Below are positions 641 through 47,732 of a stretch of DNA of 64,000 nt, piece after piece. The position numbers were made by a program, and so were the translations under genes. Origin of the DNA: Nitrospirota bacterium (GTDB taxonomy: Bacteria; Nitrospirota; UBA9217); contig CAVPKD010000006.1 of NCBI GenBank assembly GCA_963705595.1, forward strand, positions 321,781 to 385,780, in the 5' to 3' direction. Below the pieces are notes generated by a model that worked only from the letters and a program-made list of their open reading frames with translations, was not told the origin of the DNA and searched no databases. Position 1 is the stretch's first letter. The number at the start of each line of letters is the position of its first letter.

Positions 641-825
641 AAAGTAAAAAGAAGAAAACAGGCAAAAGGAGCAGTACCCGGAAAGCTGTCCAGAAAACAA
701 CTGCGAAGAAATCACTCGAGAAAAAATCGGCAAAAAAGAAATCAGCTATTACTGGACAGGCGGGAGATGCAAGCAAACAGAAGACCAATGCGGTCTCAAT
801 ACGAATTTCAGAACAGGAGGATAAA

Positions 826-2238
826 ATGACACCAAAAGATGTACTGAAGTTAGCAAAAGAGAGCAAGGCAATGATGGTAGACATGAAATTCATGGACTAC
901 CCCGGACTGTGGCAGCACTTCTCCGTCCCGGTGGATGAATTGACCGAAGGCATATTCGAAGAAGGCCTCGGGTTCGACGGATCCAGCATTCGTGGATGGC
1001 AGGCGATCCACACGAGCGACATGCTCGTGGTTCCTGACGCGGAGACAGCGGTTATGGATCCCTTCACCAAGTATCCGACGCTCTCGCTTATCTGCAACAT
1101 CGTTGACCCCATCACCAAGGAGCGATACAGCCGCGACCCGCGCTACATAGCGCAGAAGTCCGAGGCGTACCTCAAGTCCACCGGCCTTGGCGACACCTGC
1201 TACATGGGCCCCGAGCCTGAGTTCTTCATCTTCGACGACATCCGCTTCGACCAGAATTCTCACTCCGGCTATTACTTCCTCGACAGTGTGGAAGGCATTT
1301 GGAACAGCGGCAAGGATGAGAAGCCGAACCTGGGATACAAGCCGCGCCATAAGGAAGGCTACTTCCCGGTGCCGCCCATTGACAGCCAGGAGGACATCCG
1401 CACCGAGATGGTGGAGGAGATGCAGAAGGTTGGTATCTACGTTGAGAAACAGCATCATGAGGTGGCCACTGCCGGTCAGGCCGAGATCGACATGCGGTTC
1501 AATTCTCTCGTGAAGTGCGCCGACCAGCTCATGTATTTCAAGTACATTATCAAGAACGTGGCGAAGCGGCATAATAAGACCGTGACCTTCATGCCCAAGC
1601 CGCTCTTCGGCGATAACGGTTCGGGCATGCACACGCATCAGTCCATCTGGAAGAACGGCAAACCGCTTTTCGCGGGCGATGGCTATGCGGGCATGTCCCA
1701 GATGGCGCTCCACTACATTGGTGGCATCTTGAAGCACGCAAAAGTGATCGCTGCGTTCACCAACCCAACGACGAACTCCTATAAGCGATTGACCCCGGGA
1801 TTCGAGGCTCCGGTGAACTTGGCTTACTCCAGCCGTAACCGGTCGGCCTCCGTCCGCATCCCCATGTACAGCGCGAACCCCAAGACAAAGCGCATCGAGG
1901 TCAGGTTCCCCGACCCATCCTGTAACCCCTACCTGGCGTTCGCGGCCATGCTCCTGGCGGGCCTGGACGGCATCGAGAACAAGATCGATCCAGGCCAACC
2001 GCTCGACAAGGATATCTACGATATGGCGCCTGAAGAACTGGCGAGCGTGCCGACTATGCCGGGCTCGCTCGACGAGGCCCTCAATAATCTCGAGGCAGAC
2101 CACAACTTCCTTCTAAAGGGCGATGTGTTCACCAAGGACGCCATCGAGACCTGGATCAGTTACAAGAGATCCAAGGAAGTGGATGCCCTCCGTCTTCGAC
2201 CCCATCCCTACGAATTCTTCCTGTATTACGATCTGTAA
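826..2238 (+). CDS. glnA: Glutamine synthetase type I (470 aa from ATG 826; the frame is open back to ATG 637)
   Basis: Full-length GS-I sequence ([12 protein letters not shown]..., [31 protein letters not shown]); AGGAGG at 815-820, 5 nt before ATG 826. Confidence 0.95.
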
Positions 2239-24766: not shown

Positions 24767-26113
24767 TTATTCTACTCCGAGTTCTTTCAGTCTTTTCCAC
24801 AGAGTGACCCTGCTGATGCCGAGATGTTTTGCCGTAAGGGTCCGGTTTCCTTTGTGCAGGGTCAGCGCCGAGCGCAGCTTTTCCCGGTCCATAATCTGTC
24901 CATTCCCTTCTGCCTTTTTCTCCTCGAAGACATATTCAGGCAGGTCTGTGACTTCGACGGTGTCTCCTTTGCAAGTGATAGCGCTATGCTCCAGGGTGTT
25001 GATCAACTGTCTAACGTTTCCTGGCCACCGGTAGTTTTCGATGATATCCAATGCTTCAGGGCTTATTCTCCGGATATCCTTATTGTTAATATGGGAGATC
25101 TTCTTCAAATAGTGGAACGTGATGGCGGGGATATCTTCAGCCCGGTCCCGCAGAGGCGGAACCCTGATTAAAATGGAGTTAATGCGGTACAGGAGGTCTT
25201 CCCGGAAGATGTCCGAATTGACGAGGGCGTTCAGGTCCTTATTCGTGGCGGAGATCAGCCGGATGTTGACGGAGATCGGATTGTGATCTCCCACGCGTTC
25301 CACCACTTTTTCTTCGATGACCCGTAGTAGTTTCACCTGCATGACCTTTGGCATGTCGCCAATCTCATCGAGGAAGATACTGCCGTTATGAGCAGCCTCG
25401 AACCTGCCCATCCGGTCGCTCATGGCGCCTGTGAAGGAGCCTTTCTTGTGACCGAAGAGCTCACTCTCGAGAAGATAATCGTTGAGCGACCCGCAGTTCA
25501 TCGCGACGAACGGGCCCTCTTTGCGCCTGCTGAGGGTGTGGATGGCCTGGGCCACGAGGTTCTTGCCGGTACCGCTTTCGCCGCAGATAAGCACAGGCGC
25601 TTCACTCACGGAAGCGTTCCGGATCTGCTCGAACAGAGTCTGCATAGGGGCGCTCTTCCCGAGCAGACCCTTGAACCAGTATTCCTGCCGCAGTTCCTGC
25701 TTCAACTCTTCGAGCTCCATCTCCTTCATATACAGCGATGTGATATCCGTCATAGACTCTACGGCACCGATCATTTCGCCGTTCTCGTCCTTAAGGACCG
25801 TAGCGTTCTTTAAGAGATAGACGGCCCTCCCATCGCTGGACCTTATGCGGCATTTCTTGTTTTCGATCGCGCCCATCTTGAATATGCCGCAGTCTTTTTT
25901 CCTCCCCTCGTCGGTTAAGAAGACACAGGTGTCGCTGTCGAGGATCGTGCACTGTTGCCCAATGACATCTTCTTTGCGATATCCGGTAATATTTTCCGCA
26001 GCTCGGTTGAAGAAGAGAATATTCCCGTCTTTATCGACGATCATGAGTCCGTCTCGCATGGTTTCGAAAACGTTCATAAGAAAGTGAGGTTCTTTGCATA
26101 ATTTTTCAATCAT
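24767..26113 (-). CDS. Sigma54-dependent transcriptional activator (PAS - AAA+ - Fis HTH, no receiver domain)
   Basis: GESGTGKN Walker A, GSFTGA (GAFTGA variant), FLDEIGDM, RWPGNVRQL, C-terminal LGISRVTLWKRLKELG; the PAS domain carries 4 Cys. Confidence 0.9.
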   Translation of the reverse strand: MIEKLCKEPHFLMNVFETMRDGLMIVDKDGNILFFNRAAENITGYRKEDVIGQQCTILDSDTCVFLTDEGRKKDCGIFKMGAIENKKCRIRSSDGRAVYLLKNATVLKDENGEMIGAVESMTDITSLYMKEMELEELKQELRQEYWFKGLLGKSAPMQTLFEQIRNASVSEAPVLICGESGTGKNLVAQAIHTLSRRKEGPFVAMNCGSLNDYLLESELFGHKKGSFTGAMSDRMGRFEAAHNGSIFLDEIGDMPKVMQVKLLRVIEEKVVERVGDHNPISVNIRLISATNKDLNALVNSDIFREDLLYRINSILIRVPPLRDRAEDIPAITFHYLKKISHINNKDIRRISPEALDIIENYRWPGNVRQLINTLEHSAITCKGDTVEVTDLPEYVFEEKKAEGNGQIMDREKLRSALTLHKGNRTLTAKHLGISRVTLWKRLKELGVE

Positions 26114-26145
26114 GGGTCATCCTTTGTTGTTAAAAAATGAAACAT

Positions 26146-26199
26146 GTTAATTAGCATCTTGTTAATTGTTAATTAAACACGTTTAACGTTAATTAGCAT
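26146..26199. promoter_or_regulatory. Candidate enhancer (UAS): two exact GTTAATTAGCAT copies 42 bp apart with GTTAATTGTTAATTAA between them
   Basis: 12-mers at 26146-26157 and 26188-26199; a related TTAATTATTAATTAGCA at 26935-26951 upstream of the second USP gene. Confidence 0.45.
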
Positions 26200-26280
26200 T
26201 TTAACATAAATTTGTCAATATAAAATTATAATGATTTTGAAACACATTGAAATATTATAAAATAGGTTCTAATATAAATC

Positions 26281-26296
26281 AGGCATGATACTTGCT
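26281..26296 (+). promoter_or_regulatory. Sigma54 promoter (-24 GG / -12 GC) for the USP-USP-USP-YeeE operon
   Basis: AGGCATGATACTTGCT versus TGGCACG-N4-TTGCW; GG at 26282-83, TTGC at 26292-95, exact spacing; about 50 nt upstream of ATG 26348. Confidence 0.65.
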
Positions 26297-26347
26297 ATAA
26301 TTAACGTGTATTAGGAACATATAAAATGTTTGCAGGAGGAATGATGC

Positions 26348-26932
26348 ATGAAAAAGATCCTGATAGCAGTAGATGATACAAAGGGATCAAAGAACGTACT
26401 ATCGGTCTTTCATAATTTTGTCCAGAAGCCGGCTGAGGTGGTTCTTCTTCACGTAGAAAGGCTGCAGGGCCGGTCTCTGATGATTGACATGCTTGGCGAC
26501 GCGGAAATGTCGACCCTGAAGGAAATGATGAACGGCACTGATCATAAAGCCACGTTGGACAAGAGGGCGGAGCAGATCCTGGCATTTTACTCGAAAGAGC
26601 TGGTACAGGACGGTCTGGGAACGCTCAAGACCGTGAGAAGGGATGGCGTTCCTTCTGAAGAAATCCTCAGGGTGGCTGGGGAAGAAGGCGCCGATATGAT
26701 CATTCTCGGCCAGAGCGGTAAAAGAGGGTTCGACAGGTTCATTACAGGAAAAGTCGCCCAATACGTAGAAGCCAATGCGAAGGTGCCGGTGCTGGTGGCA
26801 AAAAGACCGCTTATGTGTGAAGAACCGTTTACCAAAAGGGATGCCTGGGCCGCTGTTTCCGTTACTACGGCAATCATGCTCGCACTGTTCATTCTGGGCG
26901 TCATTCTCCAAAGAGGGATGATTATTCACTAG
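26348..26932 (+). CDS. Universal stress protein (UspA family) with a C-terminal TM anchor
   Basis: MKKILIAVDDTKGSKNVL...GADMIILGQSGKRGFDRFITGKVAQYV...VPVLV, then AAVSVTTAIMLALFILGVIL. Confidence 0.85.
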   Translation: MKKILIAVDDTKGSKNVLSVFHNFVQKPAEVVLLHVERLQGRSLMIDMLGDAEMSTLKEMMNGTDHKATLDKRAEQILAFYSKELVQDGLGTLKTVRRDGVPSEEILRVAGEEGADMIILGQSGKRGFDRFITGKVAQYVEANAKVPVLVAKRPLMCEEPFTKRDAWAAVSVTTAIMLALFILGVILQRGMIIH

Positions 26933-27030
26933 CGTTAATTATTAATTAGCAGATGCCATATGTAACCACGGAGTTGAAGCCAGGTAACTTTAGGAACAAA
27001 CAAGATAACAAAAAATAATGAGGAGGAAAT

Positions 27031-27549
27031 ATGAAGAAGGTATTGATCGCTGTAGATGAAACAGAAGGTTCAAAAGCCGTATTGTCGGTGTTCCGTAATA
27101 TGGTACGTCCGCCGGAAAGCGTGGTGCTGGTCCATGTGCAGCAGCTCGAGGGCAAGTCCCTCATGATCGACATGCTTGGGGACGCAGAGCTGAACACGCT
27201 CCGGGAGTCCCTGAAGGGCACACCGTATAAAGAGGCATTGGACCGGAAGTCGGAAAAGATCCTGAACTATTATCGGAAGGAAATTGAGAATGGCGGCTTG
27301 GTCAGCGTGAAGACCGTGGTCAGGGATGGAATCACCTCTGAGGAGATATTGAAGGTCGCCCAGGAAGAAGGTGTTGACCTTATTGTTACGGGGTACAATG
27401 GGAAGACCTTCATGCAGAGGCTTGTCACCGGCTCTATCAGCAAAGATATGGAGAAGAATGCACCGGTGCCCGTCCTCGTTGCGAAGGACCCCACGGAAGA
27501 AGAGAAGTATGCCTGGACCGCGGCCATGAGATTGAAGGCAAGCAATTAA
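27031..27549 (+). CDS. Universal stress protein, paralog 2
   Basis: MKKVLIAVDETEGSKAVL..., collinear with the gene at 26348; GAGGAGG RBS. Confidence 0.85.
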   Translation: MKKVLIAVDETEGSKAVLSVFRNMVRPPESVVLVHVQQLEGKSLMIDMLGDAELNTLRESLKGTPYKEALDRKSEKILNYYRKEIENGGLVSVKTVVRDGITSEEILKVAQEEGVDLIVTGYNGKTFMQRLVTGSISKDMEKNAPVPVLVAKDPTEEEKYAWTAAMRLKASN

Positions 27550-27596
27550 GCAGTCTGCTGAAAACGTCCAGAAAACACGGTGAACGTAATTTTGAG

Positions 27597-27642
27597 CGAA
27601 GCGAAGGACCTCGGTTTTTCATAGAGGCGGTCCTTCGCTTCG
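27597..27642 (+). repeat. Intercistronic 14-bp perfect hairpin (CGAAGCGAAGGACC / GGTCCTTCGCTTCG)
   Basis: 27597-27610 pairs with 27629-27642; lies between USP2 and USP3. Confidence 0.6.
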
Positions 27643-27748
27643 TTTGTGTGGTGCGAAAAATAATTTATCAGATCCTGCGAGGGTTTCAGTGCCCTGGAGA
27701 ACGGGGCTTGAAATATCAGGGGTTAATAATACCATACAGGAGGGGGAT

Positions 27749-28264
27749 ATGAGGAAGGTGCTAATGGCGGTAGACGAGACAGCAGGTTCAAAATCCGTAC
27801 TGTTCGTCTACAAAACCATGGTCCGGGAACCGGAAAGCGTGATCCTAGTCCATGTGCAGCGGCTTGAGGGAAAGTCGATGATGATCGATATGCTCAGTGA
27901 GTCGGAGTTGAAGACCCTGAAGGAGTCGATACAGGGCACGGAGCACAAAGAGGAGCTTGACCGGAAGTCAGAAAAGATCATGAGCTTCTACAAGAAGGAA
28001 CTTGGGAACGGCAGTTCGGTCAAGGTGAAGGCCCTCATAAAGGAAGGTATCCCCTCGGTGGAGATCCTGAAGGTCGCCCGGGAAGAGAAGGTCGATCTTA
28101 TCATCATGGGCTGCAACGGCAAGACCTGGCCCCAGCGGCTCGTTACCGGATGCGTCACCAAAGAAGTGGAACGAGCTGCAACAGTGCCCGTACTTGTCGC
28201 AAAGACGGCCGGGCGTGAAAAATCTATTGAGCACGGCTGGAGGGAAGCTTATGCTGCACAGTAG
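27749..28264 (+). CDS. Universal stress protein, paralog 3
   Basis: MRKVLMAVDETAGSKSVL...; AGGAGGGGG RBS at 27738-46; the track start at 27644 is unlikely. Confidence 0.85.
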   Translation: MRKVLMAVDETAGSKSVLFVYKTMVREPESVILVHVQRLEGKSMMIDMLSESELKTLKESIQGTEHKEELDRKSEKIMSFYKKELGNGSSVKVKALIKEGIPSVEILKVAREEKVDLIIMGCNGKTWPQRLVTGCVTKEVERAATVPVLVAKTAGREKSIEHGWREAYAAQ

Positions 28265-29350
28265 CGTTATTTCTTTTGGGACCGCGATCTTGGCCGGTCT
28301 CGCGCTTGGTTACATTCTGCAGAAAGGCCGTTTCTGTCTGAACTCGGCGTTCCGGGACATCATCTTCATAAAGGACCTTACGCTCTTCCGGTCATATCTG
28401 CTGGCGCTCGTTGTGGCGATCATCGGATCCAATCTGATGGAAGATTTGGGGCTCCTTCAGGTGATTAATGCCGATACCGGCGCCCTGGAGGCAACATCGC
28501 TCATGCGCCAGAGCTTTGTACCTGTTGCGAACGTCCTCGGCGGCTTTCTGTTCGGTCTCGGGATCGTTCTTGCCGGCGGGTGCGCGAGCGGTATCGTGTA
28601 CCGTATCGGCGAGGGCCAGCTGTCCGCCATGGTCGCGATCCTCGGCTTTTTCTTCGGCGCCGTGATGACCGCCGACGGGCTGCTGAGCCCGGTGAATAAT
28701 TTTCTCAAGGGCTTCCGTGTTGAGATCAACGGGTCAGCGAGCCCTGCTATCTGGGACATCTTCGGCGGAGGACCGGTGGTGAAATGGATCACCATTGCGA
28801 TTTTTGCTGTCGGAGTGTTAAGCTTTGTTATCGCCGGTAAGCCGGAGTTCAAGTCCAAATCAAAGGGCTTTGCATGGGGCACCACCGGTCTTCTGATCGG
28901 CGGTCTTGACTATTGCCTCGTGGTGGGTGTCATCCTATTTCGGCGGTGCTCCGCGCGGCATGGCCATCAGCGGGCCGGTCAGAGAATTCTTCTACGTTCT
29001 TCTTACCAAGAGCACGCACTCAAGCTTTCCTGAGTTCAGCTTCCTGGGTATCTTCCGCGGATCATGGGGCATGTTCTTCATCCTTTCCGTGCCCTTCGGG
29101 GCATGGCTCAGTGCCCTCTGCACTCAAGGAATTCAGGTGGAAGATCCCCCCGGCAGCGGAGTTCCTTACGGTGTTCTTCGGAAGCATCCTGATGGGAATC
29201 GGCGCGGTCATCGCCGGCGGCTGCAACATCGGCCACGGCCTTACCGGCATGTCCGCGATGGCCGTTTCCAGCCTCGTGGCTATCACCGCCATCATCCTCG
29301 GCAACTGGACGATGGTCTACTTCAAGCTGATCAGACCCATGCAGGATTAA
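28251..29350 (+). pseudogene. YeeE/YedE-family sulfur-compound (thiosulfate-type) permease; two +1 disruptions (about 28905 and 29125)
   Basis: QKGRFCLNSAF, LAGGCASGIVYRIGEG and IAGGCNIGHGLTG motifs spread over frames 0, 1 and 2; the start overlaps the USP3 stop by 14 nt. Confidence 0.8.
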
Positions 29351-29368
29351 GCTAACGCCCCCTTAAAC

Positions 29369-29408
29369 AAGGACGGCCCCGGCAGTTTTGCGGAGCCGTC
29401 CTTTTTTT
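29369..29408 (+). terminator. Rho-independent terminator after the YeeE gene
   Basis: AAGGACGGC...GCCGTCCTT stem followed by T7 (29401-29407). Confidence 0.7.
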
Positions 29409-29952
29409 GACCGTGCTTCCCTAACTCCTCCTTGCTGGATTGGCAACGTCCCCGTTCTTCACTTGATTATTCTAGAGAACTTCGCCGCTTATTTCGATTG
29501 AATCCAGCTATCTTTTCTGAAAAACCCAGTCATCGATGCTGGTTGATTCCGCTACTGGTGGAGAGACATTGGTTGAGACCGATAAGAAATGAAAACAGTA
29601 CACTTCCACTGTAAATCCTTTATCAAAGAATAATGAATCAGATTCTATGGTCAATGAAAATGGCGCAAAAGAAGAGGTGAGAGATGACGTTCATAGGTGC
29701 CCTTGGGGATCCTATGGCGTCTTAACTTCCTAAAACCATTTTGATAAAATGAAGGGGGGACTAAGGATAATGAAGTTGTTTACGATCCTTAATGTTTTTC
29801 TTAGAATAACAATTCCTCTATTTTTCTTTACCAATGCTTGTCCAAATGCGGGTATCCCTGTAGAATTCTGCACGTTTTTGTCTTGATAATTTCCTTTTCG
29901 GGTGTTATCCTTTTCTATACTCTAAAAGCAATGTGCTGCCAGGTCTACAAAC

Positions 29953-31299
29953 ATGCTGGATAGATTATTAAAAGACCCTCAATTTTTGCCTGAAGTGTTC
30001 GAGACCATGAGGGACGGCCTTATGGTGGTAGATAACAAAGGCCGTATCCTCTTATTCAACCGTGCGGCTGAAGAAATAACCGGGTATCGAAAAGACGAGG
30101 TTATCGGCAAAGAATGTACTATTTTCCAATGTGATACCTGTGTGGTCATAAGCGAATCAGAGGGACGGAGGGACCGTCAACTAGAAAAATTCGGTTCCAT
30201 TTACAATAAGAGATGTCGGATACGGTCGGGGGACGGGAGGTCTGTGCTTCTGCTAAAGAATGCCGTTGTTATACGGGACGACAATGGAGAAATACTCGGT
30301 ACGGTCGAGTCGATGACGGACATTACATCACTCTACAACAAGGAAATGGAACTGCAGGGGCTCAAGGAGGATTTGAGACAGGACTACTGGTTCATGGGGT
30401 TACTGGGGAAGAGCATACCCATGCAGAGATTGTACGAGCACATTCGGAATGCCGCCGTAAGCGAAGCCCCTGTCCTGATAATCGGAGAAAGCGGCTCCGG
30501 CAAAAACCTCGTCGCCCACGCCATACATAAACTCGGTAGACGCAGGGACGGACCATTCATCCAGATGAACTGCGCGTCGCTGAACGAACAGCTACTTGAA
30601 AGCGAGCTCTTCGGCCACAAGAAAGGTTCCTTCACCGGCGCGGTAAGCGACCGCATCGGAAGGTTCGAGGCCGCTCATGACGGTGGGATCTTCCTCGACG
30701 AGATCGGAGATATGCCGATGACGATGCAGGTAAAACTCCTCAGGGTCCTTGAAGAAAAAGTCGTGGAGCGCGTGGGAGACCACAAGCCGATCCCCGTGAA
30801 CATCAGGCTCATTTCAGCCACGAACAAGGACCTCAGCAGCCTGATCCACGCAGGCAAATTCAGGGAAGATCTCCTTTACCGGATAAATTCCATTGTCATC
30901 AACGTCCCTCCGTTACGGGAGCGAAAAGAAGACATCCCGCTTATCGCACTCCACTACCTCAGAAAGATTTCCTCGGTAAATAACAAAGAGATCCGGAGCA
31001 TCAGCCCTTCTGCGATGGAGATTTTAATAGACTTCCCCTGGCCGGGCAATGTGCGGCGGCTCATCAATGCCCTTGAACACAGCGCTGCCACCTGTAAAAG
31101 CGATACCATTGAGGTCTCGGATCTGCCGGACTATCTCGTCTACGAAAAAAAGACAGAGATAAACGAAAATCGTATCGACATCGAGGAGATCCGTTCGACC
31201 CTTTCTTTGTATAAAGGCAATAGAACCCTTGCGGCGAAGCACCTCGGGATCAGCAGGGTCACTCTCTGGAAAAGACTGAAGGCAATCGGCATCGACTAA
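29953..31299 (+). CDS. Sigma54-dependent activator, paralog of 24767-26113 (same 448-aa PAS - AAA+ - HTH layout)
   Basis: Collinear: FETMRDGLMVVD, EVIGKECTIF, GESGSGKN, GSFTGA, PWPGNVRRL, LGISRVTLWKRLKAIG. Confidence 0.9.
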   Translation: MLDRLLKDPQFLPEVFETMRDGLMVVDNKGRILLFNRAAEEITGYRKDEVIGKECTIFQCDTCVVISESEGRRDRQLEKFGSIYNKRCRIRSGDGRSVLLLKNAVVIRDDNGEILGTVESMTDITSLYNKEMELQGLKEDLRQDYWFMGLLGKSIPMQRLYEHIRNAAVSEAPVLIIGESGSGKNLVAHAIHKLGRRRDGPFIQMNCASLNEQLLESELFGHKKGSFTGAVSDRIGRFEAAHDGGIFLDEIGDMPMTMQVKLLRVLEEKVVERVGDHKPIPVNIRLISATNKDLSSLIHAGKFREDLLYRINSIVINVPPLRERKEDIPLIALHYLRKISSVNNKEIRSISPSAMEILIDFPWPGNVRRLINALEHSAATCKSDTIEVSDLPDYLVYEKKTEINENRIDIEEIRSTLSLYKGNRTLAAKHLGISRVTLWKRLKAIGID

Positions 31300-31317: not shown

Positions 31318-32965
31318 ATGAAAAGGTATATCGTTATCATAGCAGTCCTTGCGATCATCATTTCGGCTCTCATGATCCTAAGTGTTTTTTTTCAGCGGAC
31401 GCTCCAGATGGAGACGGCCGAACAGTTCAACAGGCAGCAACTGCTCCTTGCCAATGCAGAGGCATCGAACATTCAGACCTATCTAAGTAGCGTAAAAGAG
31501 GAAATGCTCCATATCGCTCAATCCGTGTCACTGCTCCAGATCCGCAAAGAGACGGATTGCAGGTTGCTTACCAACGCGATTTTTAAGGACAACGATAATG
31601 TCAAGAAACGGATAGAATTCCTCGATCGTAACGGGGAAATATTTTTCAGCCGAGGGAACGTGCATGCAGAAGGACCCGATGAAAAAAAGATCGTCAGCGG
31701 GGCAAGAAGGTTGTGTCCCGGCGATGTGCAGATAGAACAGGATACGAAGAGGATTTCCATCGTCGCTCCGATGTGTCGTTATGACTCCCTCATCGGTGCG
31801 GTGGTGATTACCCTTGATATCCAGGACATCGCGATGACCTTCCTCAGCCCCATAAAATCCGGCTTCACGAGGGTATGCATGGATGATGGATGAAAAAGGG
31901 AACCTTCTGTACCATCCAACCCAGCCCAACATGGTCGGCAGGAATTTATACAAGACCGACTCTTCCTGCTTCAAATGTCATAAAACCTTTGACGTGGAAA
32001 AGAAGATCATTGAAGGGAGAGGCGACTATTACGGAAGATACGTTGCACCGACCGGGGAAGACAAGATCCTGGCCTTCTCCACCATAGCGGTCGGGAATGC
32101 ACGGTGGATCGTGGCGGTATCGGCCCCCTATTCCGAGGTCACCATGTCGATCAAGAGGTCCATGAACCTCTATGCGTGGATCATTATCGTGATCTTTATG
32201 ACGACCAGCGGTGTTGCCGCAATGCTGCTTGTTTTAAACCGGAAACAGGAACAAGCCGAAGAGCGGGCAAAACATGAGAAGGAACTCGAGATGATGCACT
32301 CCGAAAAGCTTGCATCCCTCGAACGGTTGACCTCGGGCATAACCTCCGAAATAGGAAATCCCTTAACATCGGTTTTCTCTTTTATCGACGTATTAATGGA
32401 TATGGAGGATGATGAGTTTAAAAAGGAGACGCTCGAGACCATCTTCTTCCATATGAACAGGATCGCGGACATCCTGAAACAGCTTTCCAGTTTTTCGAAG
32501 ATGCCGCCTATGGAGCTCAAACCCTGCAAGGTGAACAGCCTTATCGAGGAGTCCCTTTCTCTCATCCAGTACGACCAGAGGGTACAGGACATCACCGTCG
32601 TGAGGGACCTCTGGCCCGATATGCCGGCGATCACCACGGACGGGAACCAGCTCTCCCAGGTCATCGTGAACATCGTATTGAACGCAGCGGATGCAATGCC
32701 GAGCGGGGGGACACTCACAATACGAAGCAGGGTAGAGAATAACAGTATCGTGATCGATTTTGAGGATACGGGAGTTGGCATTGACAAAGAGAATCTCAGC
32801 AGGATATTCGACCCATTTTACACCACGAAAGAGCATGGTACGGGTCTGGGCCTCGCGGTGAGCTATAGCATCATTAAGAAACTCAACGGAAGCCTTACGG
32901 TAGAAAGCGATCTCAACAAGGGCTCCAGATTTATGATAACCCTTCCGATGAAAGGAACGGGATGA
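31318..32965 (+). pseudogene. Membrane sensor histidine-kinase-like protein (periplasmic Cache-like domain with CXXCH; HATPase); one +1 disruption near 31860
   Basis: TM helix, then RGYAWMMDEKGNLLYHP and SSCFKCHK, a second TM helix, a DHp-like helix LTSGITSEIGNPL, then N, G1, F and G2 boxes (NAADAM, DTGVGI, FDPFYTTK, GTGLGL). Confidence 0.8.
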
Positions 32966-37534: not shown

Positions 37535-37999
37535 CTACTTCACGATCAGAACAGGGATGTCTGCACTGTTCGCCACTTCTCTGCTGACGCTTCCCATGAA
37601 AAGGTGGGTGGTTCTTCTGCCCCGCGCTCCGATGACAATCATATCCGCTTTTTCTTCCCTGGCTGTATTCAAGATCTCTTCAGCCGGATGCCCTTTCTTG
37701 ATGATCGTCCTGACTCCGGTTAAGCCTTTGTCTTCCAGGGCTTTTTTGTAGTAACCGACAATAGCGTTGGCCTTTTTATCAAGCGCCTCCTGATATTCGG
37801 TCCCTTCCAAAACTTCCTTCAGGGTCTGCATCTCCGAAACGCTCAGCAACTGGTCGTCCATCAGGGACCTGCCTTCGAGCTTCTCGACATAAACCAGGAT
37901 GATGGTCTCAGGACGCACGCAGGAGCAAAACATCGTGTATGTAGAAAAAGCATTTTTTGTGCCCTTCGTTTCGTCTACTGCAATAAGTATCCGCTTCAT
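37535..37999 (-). CDS. Universal stress protein, paralog 4
   Basis: MKRILIAVDETKGTKNAF...ADMIVIGARGRRTTHLFMGSVSREV...IPVLIV. Confidence 0.85.
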   Translation of the reverse strand: MKRILIAVDETKGTKNAFSTYTMFCSCVRPETIILVYVEKLEGRSLMDDQLLSVSEMQTLKEVLEGTEYQEALDKKANAIVGYYKKALEDKGLTGVRTIIKKGHPAEEILNTAREEKADMIVIGARGRRTTHLFMGSVSREVANSADIPVLIVK

Positions 38000-38096
38000 G
38001 ATTTCTCCGTTATCAGGGATGGTCTTGAAACGACCAGTTCTGCGAATGTTTATGCGTCGTTATGAGAGCAGTTCCCGGTGTTGAGCTATCCGGGCA

Positions 38097-38407
38097 CTAT
38101 TTATATCCGCCTGCTGCCGGCGCCCCGTACCCGCCTGACTTGGGAGCCGGTGCCCCATACCCGCCTGACTTGGGAGCCGGTGCCCCGTACCCGCCTGCTG
38201 CCGGTGCTGTACCGTATCCGCCCGGATGCGGGAGCCGGTGCTGAACCGTAGCCGCCGATGCATGACGCGGAACGCCGAGCCATATCCGCCTGCGGCGCCC
38301 TGGCCCGGCGCGGCTTTCGCTATCATATCATGCTGCTGGCTGTACACCACCAGGAAACCGAGAATGCACACCACGATCGCAATGAGAATTACCAGCGGTG
38401 CTTTCAT
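38097..38407 (-). pseudogene. Small membrane-anchored Gly/Tyr-rich repeat protein (about 7 GGYG motifs); two +1 disruptions
   Basis: MKAPLVILIAIVVCILGFLVV anchor, then GGYGSA / GGYGSAPAPAS / GGYGTAPAA / GGYGAPAPKS x2 / GGYGAPAA / GGYK* recovered across three frames. Confidence 0.5.
38104..38300. repeat. Degenerate tandem repeat encoding the GGYG units; the core is two 30-bp copies
   Basis: 38122-38151 and 38152-38181 differ at one base (GCCCCGTACCCGCCTGACTTGGGAGCCGGT); flanked by diverged copies. Confidence 0.75.
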
Positions 38408-38442
38408 AAGATCCTCCCTTAGATATGGTTTGAAGCAACTGC

Positions 38443-38694
38443 TTAGCCCTTTTTGATTTTAAAGACGATCTTGCCGCCTTCGTTCTTCTTCTCCATCAGG
38501 TCATGTCCGGCCTGATCGAGCATCTGGACGATCGTTTCCGCCGACGAGGGGTTGTCGAAGGTCATCTCGAGGACCTCGCCCTCTCCGATCTTCTCCAGCG
38601 ATTTCTTGCAGTAGATCTGGGGATGGGGGCACACATAGCCGCACACATCGAGCATATAGACACCGTCACCTTTTTTTTCAAATTTCATTGCCAT
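38443..38694 (-). CDS. TusA/SirA-family sulfurtransferase
   Basis: 83 aa; LDVCGYVCPHPQI (CPxP active-site motif); directly downstream of a YeeE gene. Confidence 0.85.
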   Translation of the reverse strand: MAMKFEKKGDGVYMLDVCGYVCPHPQIYCKKSLEKIGEGEVLEMTFDNPSSAETIVQMLDQAGHDLMEKKNEGGKIVFKIKKG

Positions 38695-38725
38695 GACAAA
38701 TATCCTCCTTATATTCGATAGTTAT

Positions 38726-40156
38726 TTATGGGTAGGTTAAAAATCCGCCATTTCCTGCCGCCATCTTTCTCTCCGACCACCAGTTGAAGAACTTGACACC
38801 GGCAAAGGCGCCGGTCACCATGCCGATGCCGTACAGCCATCCGCTCGGATCGCCACCTGCAACGCGGATGAAGAACGCGCCGATGTTGCAGCCGAGCGCG
38901 GGACGCGAGCCCAGTCCCATCAAGGTCCCGCCCAGCAGACCCCACACGATCAGTTCGCCCTTCGGCAGCTTGAACTTGAACTCCTTGCTCATGAGCGACA
39001 TGATCATGGCGCCGAAGATGATGCCGAAGGACATCCAGAGCGCCGGGTTGCGCCAGGGCACGGGGAGCCCGTTATTGACGCCGAAGAACACGTTGTCATG
39101 CATGTTCCATCCGAGCTTGTCGAGGACCCACCCGCCGAACTGTCCTTCCTGGCTGGTGATATACCAGTAGCCCGGGTCAAAGACCGTGCCCCGGATGCTC
39201 GTGTCAGCGGCATGCCCCATCTTGGTGAGGAGCTCTCCGAAATTCGAGATGCCGAACTTGATCTGCATGCCCTTCATGACGAAGATGTGGATGCCCGCGG
39301 TGATGCCGATGATGACCCCCATAATAGAGGTCCGCTTGGACGCCGTCAGCATGCTCCAGATCCCGGCAAACTCGTCGGAGAAGCTTGTCGGCTTGCCCGT
39401 CTGTTTTGCGCGCTTCTTGAGGAAGCCTTTCCGGATGTAGAACGCATAGATGACGACGATCAGCACGAGGGCAGGTATGATCGCGCTGATGAGCGCGTCT
39501 GCGACGAAGAATTTTGATGCGCCCGGGAGGGCATTTGAGAAGGCTTGGGTGTGTGAAAGCTGGATAGAGGGCTGGTCCCAGACGTAGCCGGAAAGGTAGT
39601 AGTCGAACCAGGACCTGACCTTGTCGGCGGGAAGATGCTTCGCTGCGGAAGACGCCTTCCAGGAATCCGGGACCAGTTTCAGGAAGGGCCCGCCGATGTC
39701 AACAAAGATCGCCTGGCCGAAGGATATCCCGAGGATGGAAAGTATCGAGGTGCCGTTGCCTTCGCCGATCTTGTACAGGGACCCCGATGCGCACCCTCCG
39801 GCAAGGACCATCCCCACGCCGAAGATCATCCCCGATATCAGCGTGTGGACGCCGAACGGGGCCGGATGGAAGGTGCTCATGTTGGTTGCTGCGAGCGTTG
39901 CCTGGATGACGCTGAAAAAGATGAGCGCGATCAGGATGCCGACGGCCATTCTCGGAACACCGGCGGCAAACAGATCTCGCGATGCCGAAGCGAAGCAGAA
40001 CCTGCCGTACTGAAGCATCATGCCGTAAGCGATTCCGAACCAGATGTATGCTACCAGGTACATGTAATATACATTTGCCTTGTAATAGAGCAGGCTCACC
40101 AGAATCATCAAGCCTGTTACTACGAAGGCCCAGATCTGATTTTTTTTCTCTTCCAT
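38726..40156 (-). CDS. YeeE/YedE-family sulfur-compound permease (intact, 476 aa)
   Basis: YGRFCFASASRD, LAGGCASGSLYKIGEGNG, ALGCNIGAFF; polytopic. Confidence 0.85.
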   Translation of the reverse strand: MEEKKNQIWAFVVTGLMILVSLLYYKANVYYMYLVAYIWFGIAYGMMLQYGRFCFASASRDLFAAGVPRMAVGILIALIFFSVIQATLAATNMSTFHPAPFGVHTLISGMIFGVGMVLAGGCASGSLYKIGEGNGTSILSILGISFGQAIFVDIGGPFLKLVPDSWKASSAAKHLPADKVRSWFDYYLSGYVWDQPSIQLSHTQAFSNALPGASKFFVADALISAIIPALVLIVVIYAFYIRKGFLKKRAKQTGKPTSFSDEFAGIWSMLTASKRTSIMGVIIGITAGIHIFVMKGMQIKFGISNFGELLTKMGHAADTSIRGTVFDPGYWYITSQEGQFGGWVLDKLGWNMHDNVFFGVNNGLPVPWRNPALWMSFGIIFGAMIMSLMSKEFKFKLPKGELIVWGLLGGTLMGLGSRPALGCNIGAFFIRVAGGDPSGWLYGIGMVTGAFAGVKFFNWWSERKMAAGNGGFLTYP

Positions 40157-40372: not shown

Positions 40373-40431
40373 TTTGCATGCTATGTTGCATAATTGCTTG
40401 ATATTGCAACAAAAAAGAACCAGATTGCAAC
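40373..40431. promoter_or_regulatory. Cluster of TTGCA(T/AC) sites upstream of the YeeE-TusA operon, including the palindrome GTTGCA-N14-TGCAAC
   Basis: GTTGCA 40385-90 and TGCAAC 40405-10; ATTGCAAC repeated at 40403-10 and 40424-31; TTTTGCATGC at 40373-82. Confidence 0.3.
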
Positions 40432-40457
40432 TGCGGAGAGGTAGATGGGTAGCCTAT

Positions 40458-45945: not shown

Positions 45946-46808
45946 GGGGTAGCATGCGGATGGTCCAAGGGGGCGTGATTGCCGCAAGTACAGAACGACT
46001 GCGGGGCCTGCGAACGGGGGGACGAGCGCGGTCCTTATTTCACTATGAAATACATTGCAACATACTCGAACTATCTTCGATGTTTCGGGGAACAGCCTGC
46101 AGGTTTGGCAAAATTATTATCTATTATCGGGCAACTTATTTATAGAGGCGCAATTCACTCGTCATCCGGTTTTGCAATAAATATGCTCTGACCACACGTC
46201 AGCGATGTGGGCTCTACAGGAGAACTCGTGGATATCTCTGTCACGCTATCGGGGATTGCGATGGGAGCCGGTTTCGGATTCGTGCTTCACATGATTTCTA
46301 CGCTTGCCATGTCGAGCGTGGTGTCAATGGCGAGTATTGTCGTCGGCAGCTGGTCCATGTTTTACCTGCTTTTCATGAAAAAGTCCGCAGGGAGGTAAAG
46401 TCTCCATTCGGATGGAATGCGATACCCGGGGAATATATGGGCGACATTGCCAAATATGTAAACGTACAGGATGACGTTTTCAAGGAAGAATACCCTTGCG
46501 GTTTCCCATTGTCTGCCGATGTACTCCAGGAATATGACAGGGGGAAGAAACCACCCAACCAGAGAAGGTAAATTTACTCTACCAAATATGCTGAAGACCA
46601 TCCCGCTGGTGTCCCGCCATCCCGGGAACTTGTGACCTCGCATCGTCTTATTTCCTACCACACTTGTATCAAATGGCACAGAGAAGCGGTGCTGTACGCA
46701 TACATGGCACAGGTATGCCTTTGATTAATCACATCTTGCAAATCTGGCAAGAGTATTGCAAAAATTCTGTAGTCCAGCGGAAACAGAAAGCTGCCGGACT
46801 GTGGAGGT

Positions 46809-47732
46809 TTGACTGTGCATTGCCCGGATTGCAAACAAACAAACGATACCGATGCTCTCTTCTGTACAGCATGCGGAAGACCACTTGAGGCGGCACCGCG
46901 GCAGACGGTCAAGATACAGCGCAGGGCATATTTCATTGCTCTCCTTTTCGTGCCGGTTATCGCGCTTGCCGCGGGCATTGGTTACTACAAGTTTTTTTTG
47001 CCTAACGGAGTAGCAGCCGTGGTGAACGGTGAGGAAATAAAGCTTTCCGAGCTTGACGCCGCTGTTGCCCGTGCACAGGGAAGTCAGGAGGCGGCATCAA
47101 GCCGGCTCCGGTACCAACTTCTCAACCAACTAATCACCCAGCGGATCGTGATTCAGGAAGCGCGCAAGGCAGGAATATCGGTGTCAAAAGAAGAAATCGA
47201 AACATCCGCAACAGAAGTGCGAATATCCTCCGGTCTCGATGAAGCGACTTTCAATAGGCAAGTTGTTTCACAGTATGGCAGCATGCGCACATTCAAGGAT
47301 GCTCTGGAGCGCCGTCTCCTGGCGAACAGGTTCTTTGTCGCAAAGGTCGTACCTCCGGGCGCTGATCAGCCTACCGCGCAAAGCGCAATAAAACGATGGC
47401 TCGATGATATTGCAGGAAGGGCCGCGGTACGGATAGCGCTGGCAGGGCAAGGAGCGGGACCAGGGTGTGCTCGCTGCAACACAGAAGACGTGCAGGCGTC
47501 GAAGCGGTCGGGTATCCAGGGACATGGTTGCGCAGCCGTAAAGAAACCAGCCGCTTTGGACGTGGGGAAAGCGGCAGATGCCGGCCTTCGGTTCTGGCAT
47601 GCGAAATACGGACCTGACGCGGTCACTACGCGGTTGACCGAATACGGTTGTCATATCCAGGTTGACATCGTGAAGAATAATAAAATAATCGGTTCCCTCC
47701 GATACCAGGATGGAAGCATTACAGAGATTTAA
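46809..47732 (+). CDS. Zinc-ribbon / TM / SurA-N-like chaperone-domain protein
   Basis: HCPDCKQ...CTACG ribbon, a TM helix, then VNGEEIKLSELD...LLNQLITQRIVIQEARKAGISVS. Confidence 0.55.
   Translation: MTVHCPDCKQTNDTDALFCTACGRPLEAAPRQTVKIQRRAYFIALLFVPVIALAAGIGYYKFFLPNGVAAVVNGEEIKLSELDAAVARAQGSQEAASSRLRYQLLNQLITQRIVIQEARKAGISVSKEEIETSATEVRISSGLDEATFNRQVVSQYGSMRTFKDALERRLLANRFFVAKVVPPGADQPTAQSAIKRWLDDIAGRAAVRIALAGQGAGPGCARCNTEDVQASKRSGIQGHGCAAVKKPAALDVGKAADAGLRFWHAKYGPDAVTTRLTEYGCHIQVDIVKNNKIIGSLRYQDGSITEI

Follow-up and report, generated by a model that had tools for sequence, protein, structure and literature searches.

A probable enhancer-dependent sigma-54 module joining universal stress proteins and a YeeE-like sulfur transporter in uncultured Nitrospirota

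Organization of the locus

The 64-kb window analysed here, 64,000 nucleotides of contig CAVPKD010000006.1 of a Nitrospirota bacterium, contains a compact locus whose first gene encodes a sigma-54 activator, ACT1. ACT1 is a bacterial enhancer-binding protein (bEBP), and its gene is divergent from the genes for three universal stress proteins (USP1 to USP3) and a YeeE-like sulfur transporter. The spacer between the two directions (26114-26347, 234 nt) carries an array of GTTAA/TTAAC pentamers and, facing the USP genes, a sigma-54 promoter sequence. The coordinates of these features are collected in Table 1. Their best explanation is a conserved, expressed, enhancer-dependent sigma-54 module in uncultured Nitrospirota of the Thermodesulfovibrionia type, a reading to which a probability of about 0.8 is assigned.

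Much of this layout had been proposed in an earlier reading of the same DNA, the original prediction, and was borne out. The divergent gene, proposed as an activator, encodes a complete bEBP with the Pfam domains PAS, Sigma54_activat (PF00158, E 6.8e-67), AAA lid and HTH_8. The spacer, described as about 75% AT, measures 75.2% A+T. It holds the two exact 12-mers that had been reported 42 bp apart with a further motif between them: GTTAATTAGCAT lies at 26146-26157 and 26188-26199 (42 bp start to start), and GTTAATTGTTAATTAA at 26161-26176. The three downstream paralogs are all USPs, the near-consensus sigma-54 promoter is present, and the transporter start (ATG 28251) does overlap the USP3 stop (28262-28264) by 14 nt.

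Table 1. Positions of the genes and regulatory features of the locus within the window
Feature	Position	Strand	Description
ACT1, receiver-less sigma-54 activator (bEBP), 448 aa	24767..26113	-	PAS + AAA+ + Fis-type helix-turn-helix (HTH); Pfam matches
Predicted enhancer (upstream activating sequence), GTTAA/TTAAC pentamer array	26146..26206		About -100 to -160 from the predicted start; both 12-mers inside
Conserved TTGTCAAT box, candidate -35 of the activator promoter	26212..26219	-	TTGACA on the minus strand
Sigma-54 promoter AGGCATGATACTTGCT	26281..26296	+	-24 GG at 26282-26283, -12 GC at 26294-26295; predicted start ~26307
USP1, 194 aa	26348..26932	+	PF00582; C-terminal hydrophobic tail (membrane anchor); degenerate ATP motif G-2x-G-9x-G-K
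USP2, 172 aa	27031..27549	+	PF00582; typical ATP-binding motif G-YN-G-9x-G-S; most conserved of the three USPs
Internal intrinsic-terminator-like hairpin	27594..27654	+	17-bp GC-rich stem, then GTTTGTGTGG; -31.3 kcal/mol, z -5.3
USP3, 171 aa	27749..28264	+	PF00582; motif G-CN-G-9x-G-C
YeeE/TsuA-like sulfur transporter, true gene one 365-aa open reading frame (ORF)	28251..29350	+	PF04143 (Pfam); two spurious bases in the window
Terminator after YeeE	29369..29408	+	Hairpin + T7; -22.1 kcal/mol, z -4.2
ACT2, paralogous activator	29953..31299	+	70% identical to ACT1; same recognition helix SRVTLWKRLK

An activator gene divergent from two or three USP genes and YeeE is an order repeated in at least ten independent Nitrospirota loci. 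For comparison, 12 loci with activators 60-90% identical to ACT1 were gathered from Nitrospirota/Thermodesulfovibrionales metagenome-assembled genomes (MAGs) and one MAG labelled delta proteobacterium; in 10 of the 12 the USP genes are followed by YeeE. The sequence of locus L007 is cut within the first USP, and in L008 a secreted multi-rhodanese gene replaces the USP genes as the activator target. L013 encodes a USP, a fused tandem USP, YeeE and two rhodaneses, and its neighbours include genes for DsrC, superoxide dismutase, DJ-1, NifU and thioredoxin-like proteins. A metagenome scan with the family alignment selected generic AAA+ peptides, giving 79 unrelated bEBPs and one in-family contig, and was used as a negative control; the control set comprises 82 loci (541 kb) that encode unrelated bEBPs.

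Two of the compared loci have unusual target genes. L013 (3075-4202, minus strand) encodes USP2 and USP3 as one tandem-USP protein of 375 aa; its stop and the yeeE start share a 14-nt overlap, and the rhodanese genes lie 3' of yeeE. The L008 target (746-2041, minus strand) is one 431-aa signal-peptide protein with rhodanese domains. Its ORF has an in-frame TGA in FYCGGPT-U-TMSPRSA, a possible selenocysteine in an active-site loop.

The stretch itself occurs in near-identical form in more than 20 public metagenomes, and parts of it in several metatranscriptomes. Thermodesulfovibrionia-type Nitrospirota abound in wetland, peat and freshwater sediments. We know of no study of any of their regulators, and literature searches returned no description of an activator/USP/YeeE module in Nitrospirota.

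The sigma-54 promoter and its upstream array

The GG and GC of AGGCATGATACTTGCT are spaced by 10 nt in a TGGCAC-N5-TTGCW-like context, and this is the sole zero-mismatch match to GGCAYG-N5-TGCW in the window. None of the 13 orthologous loci departs from either block of GGCA-N6-TTGC(T/A), which faces the target genes, whereas the 6 intervening bases and the leader vary. Mean column identity reaches 0.82 in the promoter, compared with 0.46 in the leader and 0.59 in 26233-26280. The two bEBP genes of the window have intact sigma-54 contact loops, implying a probable rpoN gene in the genome.

TATAAT and an inverted copy of ACGTTAATTA (26298-26307), together spanning 26296-26309, overlap or follow the -12 element, and relatives conserve neither of them. 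Elsewhere in the window, at 46745-46760 on the plus strand, another good sigma-54-like element, TGGCAAGAGTATTGCA, precedes a zinc-ribbon/SurA-N-like gene (46809-47732) by 49 nt; it has no accompanying GTTAA array.

The pentamers upstream of the promoter lie at 26146, 26161, 26168, 26183, 26188 and 26201, with a TTAAAC at 26173. Eight GTTAA/TTAAC pentamers are reached in 5e-5 of spacer shuffles, and an exact 12-mer direct repeat in 1-2% of them. Although the window holds 51 pentamers in total, four or more fall within 80 nt only here. The pentamers hold a fixed register in 11 loci, and mean column identity is 0.81 in the array as against 0.46-0.59 in the adjoining spacer. Clusters of at least four pentamers per 80 nt are found in all 12 loci with an ACT1-type upstream region and in none of the 82 unrelated bEBP loci. 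Even L008 retains the cluster, though its target is the rhodanese gene.

This comparison also redefines the repeated unit. Among close relatives the 12-mers read GTTAAYTAnCA with their 42-bp spacing unchanged; in the distant L008, L013 and L014 only pentamers remain. The original prediction had taken the 12-mer as the enhancer unit. The conserved, family-specific upstream array upholds the idea of an enhancer, but the unit is the GTTAA pentamer and not the whole 12-mer as a family-wide element. The recurrence that was asked of the motif was found at the level of locus comparison: it appears again at sigma-54 promoters of the ACT1 family, including one with a different target. A related motif had also been pointed out before USP2, and TTAATTATTAATTAGCA is indeed present at 26935-26951. 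As a functional third copy it was discarded, because no relative has it and RNA contigs of related strains show it partly deleted. A strict dyad, GTTAA-N8-TTAAC occurring twice, fits the close relatives, fails in L008 and L014, and is not claimed.

The likely reader of the array is ACT1 itself, for whose Fis-type helix the pentamers are predicted binding sites. Residues S434-K440 of the HTH recognition helix are invariant in 30 homologues, as expected if this helix reads the conserved GTTAA pentamer.

Transcript coverage and the extent of the unit

The RNA evidence consists of assembled contigs from eight metatranscriptome runs, which show the genes to be expressed in situ; these contigs carry no strand information and derive from strains 90-99% identical, so that they are only suggestive. 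None of them covers 26194-26315. Contigs over the 5' end of ACT1 stop at 26170 and 26172 in two runs, and those of USP1 start at the equivalent of 26319-26342, with none upstream. Depth falls to about zero after 27597-27658 in four runs, and USP3 and YeeE are thinly covered in two, including by contigs that run across the hairpin. This profile fits a start just past the -12 element and substantial termination after USP2. USP2 has the deepest coverage, 5-15 times that of USP1 in six metatranscriptomes. Possible causes of this excess are a promoter of its own, processing of the mRNA, or cross-mapping from many species, USP2 being the more conserved gene.

A hairpin and T-run follow USP2 in 9 of 11 loci, with unrelated stem sequences. 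The T-run is canonical (T6-T7) in L001-L004, L009 and L015; the window and L006 have it interrupted, and L005 has a shorter one (ATTTTGTGG). A search of 25900-30000 against Rfam gave no match at E<=1, so the hairpin between USP2 and USP3 is not explained by a known riboswitch or leader. The conserved hairpin with its T-run and the fall in RNA contigs together point to USP1-USP2 as the main unit. USP3-YeeE is probably reached by read-through or separately transcribed. Of the proposal that all three USPs and YeeE form one unit under sigma-54, the USP1-USP2 part therefore stands, and the inclusion of USP3-YeeE is weakened.

How far the sigma-54 unit extends is the point on which an alternative survives best, although it is on present evidence the less likely course. 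USP3-YeeE would then lie outside the unit, the hairpin acting as a full terminator and a sigma-70-type promoter of its own (for example TTGAAA-16-TACCAT, 27708-27735) serving USP3-YeeE, so that only USP1-USP2 would be enhancer-controlled. The retention of hairpin and T-run in most loci, the loss of RNA depth beyond them in four runs and the promoter-like site at 27708-27735 all agree with such a division, as do the loci without USP3, where 300-450 nt separate the terminator from yeeE and a common TAGTGTAWTATAGTTTAGCAA box occurs. However, in L001 and L009 the T-run and the USP3 start are only about 25 nt apart, too little to hold a promoter, L013 has USP2 fused to USP3, and L014 lacks the hairpin. 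Furthermore, RNA contigs covering 27592-27733 cross the hairpin into the USP3 leader in two runs, and the T-run is weak in the window.

One feature of the longer spacers deserves separate mention. In L002, L004 and L015 the long spacer that precedes yeeE has a common box, TAGTGTA(A/T)TATAGTTTAGCAA, right behind the USP2 terminator; this box may be a separate yeeE promoter where USP3 is missing.

A candidate promoter of the activator gene

Every family locus has the TTGTCAAT box between the array and the sigma-54 promoter, 66-70 nt ahead of the GG. On the minus strand its TTGACA (26218-26213) is followed, 17 nt downstream, by TAATTA (26195-26190; TA(A/G)TTA across loci), which lies inside the second 12-mer copy. 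We infer that these two hexamers form ACT1's own sigma-70-type promoter, overlapping the array. The box fits an activator-gene -35 better than a site for integration host factor (IHF). Since this promoter would overlap the array, bound ACT1 probably autoregulates.

These hexamers lend some weight to a second alternative, in which the array is mainly the operator/promoter region of the activator gene, serving autoregulation or another AT-binding factor, rather than an enhancer for the USP genes. The 12-mers would then be conserved for carrying the -10 region and leader of the activator gene. Besides the 17-nt spacing of TTGACA and TAATTA over the second 12-mer, the ACT1 RNA contigs run over sites 1-3 up to 26170/26172, and the array was never found away from the activator gene in the data examined. 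Nevertheless, the geometry is that of a canonical enhancer: beside a bEBP gene, several sites precede a conserved -24/-12 promoter, at -100 to -160. The distance from box to GG, kept at 66-70 nt in all loci, implies that the array side and the sigma-54 promoter are constrained together. Nor do the two roles exclude each other, as PexR performs both (PMC12754779). An array that serves the activator gene alone is accordingly judged improbable.

Least credible of all is a fortuitous GG-N10-GC match, with a sigma-70 promoter of the AT-rich spacer serving the USP genes (TATAAT at 26296-26301 or 26227-26232). In its favour, chance alone would give about 0.5 exact loose-consensus matches in 64 kb counting both strands, there is no enrichment at one mismatch, TATAAT hexamers do exist in the spacer and the RNA contigs cannot separate a start at 26307 from one at 26308. 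Against it, the invariance of GGCA and TTGC holds across 13 loci down to 60% activator identity, where the TATAAT at 26296 is not conserved; neither TATAAT has a good -35 at 16-18 nt; and a start after 26232 would require coverage of 26240-26315, which the RNA contigs leave uncovered.

ACT1 and its PAS domain

The AAA+ domain of ACT1 carries the motifs of a bEBP: Walker A GESGTGK, Walker B DE and a GSFTGA loop (a Ser variant of GAFTGA) are invariant in homologues. Compared with the NCBIfam bEBP equivalogs (PrdR, AtoC, NifA, NorR, ZraR and others), ACT1 scores above no cut-off, the best being PrdR with 364 bits against 795, and ACT1 is for this reason placed in an unnamed bEBP subfamily. This subfamily is large: its PAS region has at least 499 protein matches at E<=1e-10, nearly all of them unnamed and metagenomic.

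The PAS domain is distinguished by its cysteines. All of 30 homologues keep Cys55, Cys63 and Cys88, and at least 90% of them keep Cys75. A four-Cys set is present in both paralogues, ACT1 and ACT2, with one ligand shifted from C75 to C60: ACT2 and its orthologues have C55, C60, C63 and C88 (C-x4-C-x2-C). That four ligands are kept though one has moved suggests a metal or Fe-S site over a single disulfide switch. The AlphaFold model of the domain is a PAS fold (pLDDT 80) with a low-confidence insert at the expected F-alpha position. A fold search with this model gave LOV and NifL PAS domains as best neighbours (TM 0.67-0.76), which are generic matches that assign no cofactor. Cys55 aligns with the photoactive Cys of LOV domains.

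The predicted targets across the activator family, namely USPs, a thiosulfate-type importer and rhodaneses, point together with the neighbouring genes of L013 to redox, oxidant or reactive-sulfur stress. The signal of ACT1 is thus probably redox, an oxidant or reactive sulfur, sensed at a Cys4 metal/Fe-S site or by thiol chemistry.

The USP and transporter genes

USP2 and USP3 are 46-55% identical to USP1. The motif that defines ATP-binding USPs, G-2x-G-9x-G-(S/T) (PMC3673472), is complete in USP2, and its last position is degenerate in USP1 (K) and USP3 (C). The 194-aa form of USP1 is conserved in relatives. USP3 is absent or decayed in some of them, besides its fusion to USP2 in L013.

In the window YeeE appears in three frames (28251-~28908, ~28908-~29120 and ~29120-29350), which the original prediction had not reported. 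Alignment with L006 and L009 shows that two single-base insertions split the gene. In three independent short-read assemblies, contigs with at least 99% identity are without one base at 28908 and one at 29120. Because all three assemblies are without both, the extra bases are assembly consensus errors. YeeE is intact in relatives and in a Joint Genome Institute (JGI) contig of a near-identical strain, so that a pseudogene is ruled out.

An intact orthologue matches PF04143 with E 8.7e-67 and scores 218 bits (cut-off 400) and 132 bits (cut-off 645) with the NCBIfam TsuA models. The protein is accordingly a member of the PF04143 family and a putative thiosulfate-type importer, with scores that do not assign a substrate. 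Its three Cys motifs are GRFCLNS, AGGCASG and AGGCNIG. No YeeD/TusA partner gene lies between 26348 and 29950; a TusA gene is found at 38443-38694, beside a second YeeE-like gene.

Proposed mechanism

The mechanism proposed from these comparisons, rated as a whole at the 0.8 given above, is as follows. ACT1 dimers would bind the GTTAA array through their invariant Fis-type helix, and ACT1 would assemble its ATPase ring once the four-Cys PAS domain releases inhibition. The ring would then remodel the sigma-54 holoenzyme at 26281-26296, leading to a start near 26307. The hairpin after USP2 would end most transcripts, and a read-through fraction, or a weak secondary promoter, would express USP3 and the translationally coupled YeeE. 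The USP genes would in this way be switched on, and the sulfur importer more weakly. ACT1 bound to an array that overlaps its own sigma-70-type promoter would probably also regulate itself.

Several observations weigh against this scheme. No IHF consensus (WATCAANNNNTTR) was seen by eye between the array and the promoter. The array is always beside the activator gene, and comparison alone cannot separate an activator-gene operator from a USP enhancer. The excess of USP2 RNA over USP1 is not explained by a single start at 26307, and the uncovered divergent spacer could partly reflect sequence divergence of the contig strains. As to the terminator, the T-run of the window is interrupted (GTTTGTGTGG), and the hairpin is absent in L014 and impossible in the fused L013. 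Finally, the generic LOV/NifL-like matches of the PAS fold search indicate no cofactor.

Comparison with known systems

One of the closest known counterparts is FisR, a sigma-54 activator of sulfide/persulfide detoxification genes (PMC7315123). Like ACT1, FisR of Cupriavidus pinatubonensis and Acinetobacter baumannii is a receiver-less bEBP divergent from a sigma-54 promoter, and its targets handle reactive sulfur; in Cupriavidus it senses through cysteines of its regulatory domain (PMC7315123, PMC11211675). The targets differ, being pdo-sqr-tauE for FisR as opposed to USPs and YeeE for ACT1, and the yeeE genes of A. baumannii are under BigR instead. Unlike FisR, ACT1 has a Cys4 PAS sensor, and the resemblance is a functional one only.

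A second counterpart is PexR, an H2O2-sensing bEBP of Myxococcus xanthus. It is autoinhibited by an N-terminal metal-binding domain, binds upstream dyad repeats, activates sigma-54 stress-gene promoters and represses an overlapping sigma-A promoter (PMC12754779), much like the dual role proposed for ACT1. In PexR a Zn/Fe centre sits in a GAF domain and the controlled genes are ahpC/katB, whereas ACT1 has a four-Cys PAS domain (metal putative) and GTTAA repeat sites.

The best structural matches to the predicted PAS domain, NifL PAS1 and LOV-type PAS, include a redox-sensing PAS that controls a bEBP, that of NifL. The LOV flavin-binding motif GxNCRFLQ corresponds to GQQCTILD in ACT1, which differs further in three additional conserved Cys and in the low-confidence insert in place of the F-alpha helix.

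On the target side, the YeeE/TsuA-YeeD thiosulfate uptake system and the YeeE-like SoxT1B have, as here, a PF04143 membrane protein with three Cys-containing motifs. The YeeD partner is essential for YeeE/TsuA in E. coli (PMC11073785), and YeeE-like importers can pass a sulfur signal to a cytoplasmic regulator (PMC11582611). Unlike YeeE/TsuA-YeeD, the present operon has no YeeD/TusA gene, and the overlapping gene encodes a USP. A USP paired with a transporter recalls TeaD (teaABCD, Halomonas elongata), which is described, in the account of Schweikhard 2010 given in PMC3673472, as an ATP-binding USP encoded with a transporter that it regulates. That transporter belongs to the TRAP family and, as far as this account goes, is not under sigma-54 control; the role of USP1-3 is a putative one. 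For Planctomycetia, a survey has predicted sigma-54 promoters ahead of USP genes (PMC12316311).

The original prediction called the arrangement not a standard textbook operon. It is indeed uncharacterised, but hardly odd, since the module is widespread and conserved and sigma-54 control of USP and of sulfur-detoxification genes has precedents. The switch is of an ordinary kind, with a new sensor and new targets. The locus is a complete and compact regulatory unit, comprising sensor, DNA sites, promoter and targets, and it ties universal stress proteins to sulfur import. If the four-Cys PAS domain does bind a metal or Fe-S cluster, it would be a new sensor class for sigma-54 activators and a handle on what these anaerobes perceive as stress; if it does not, the finding is a well-documented new regulon member.

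The paralogous activator and neighbouring genes

ACT2 is followed by a Cache/HisKA/HATPase (histidine kinase-like) sensor gene at 31318-32965, and the pair is found again after yeeE in L006, L015 and L016. No GTTAA cluster occurs near ACT2, which, to judge from its recognition helix, may act on the same enhancer as ACT1. A more elaborate scheme can be drawn from this, though it is a long shot. ACT1 (Cys55/63/75/88) and ACT2 (C-x4-C-x2-C...C, co-transcribed with a haem-c Cache pseudo-kinase) would converge on the single GTTAA array, each with an undescribed Fe-S/metal PAS sensor, and the array would integrate a periplasmic signal with cytoplasmic redox/sulfane-sulfur status. The YeeE importer, gated by USP3, would supply the sensed sulfur species, making a feed-forward loop specific to sulfur-cycling Nitrospirota.

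Further along the window lies a second string of sulfur genes (37535-40156, minus strand; 40380-40440). It encodes a YeeE-like protein of 476 aa, TusA, a small Gly/Tyr-rich protein and a fourth USP that resembles USP1-3, and its upstream region carries repeated TTGCAA motifs in place of GTTAA.

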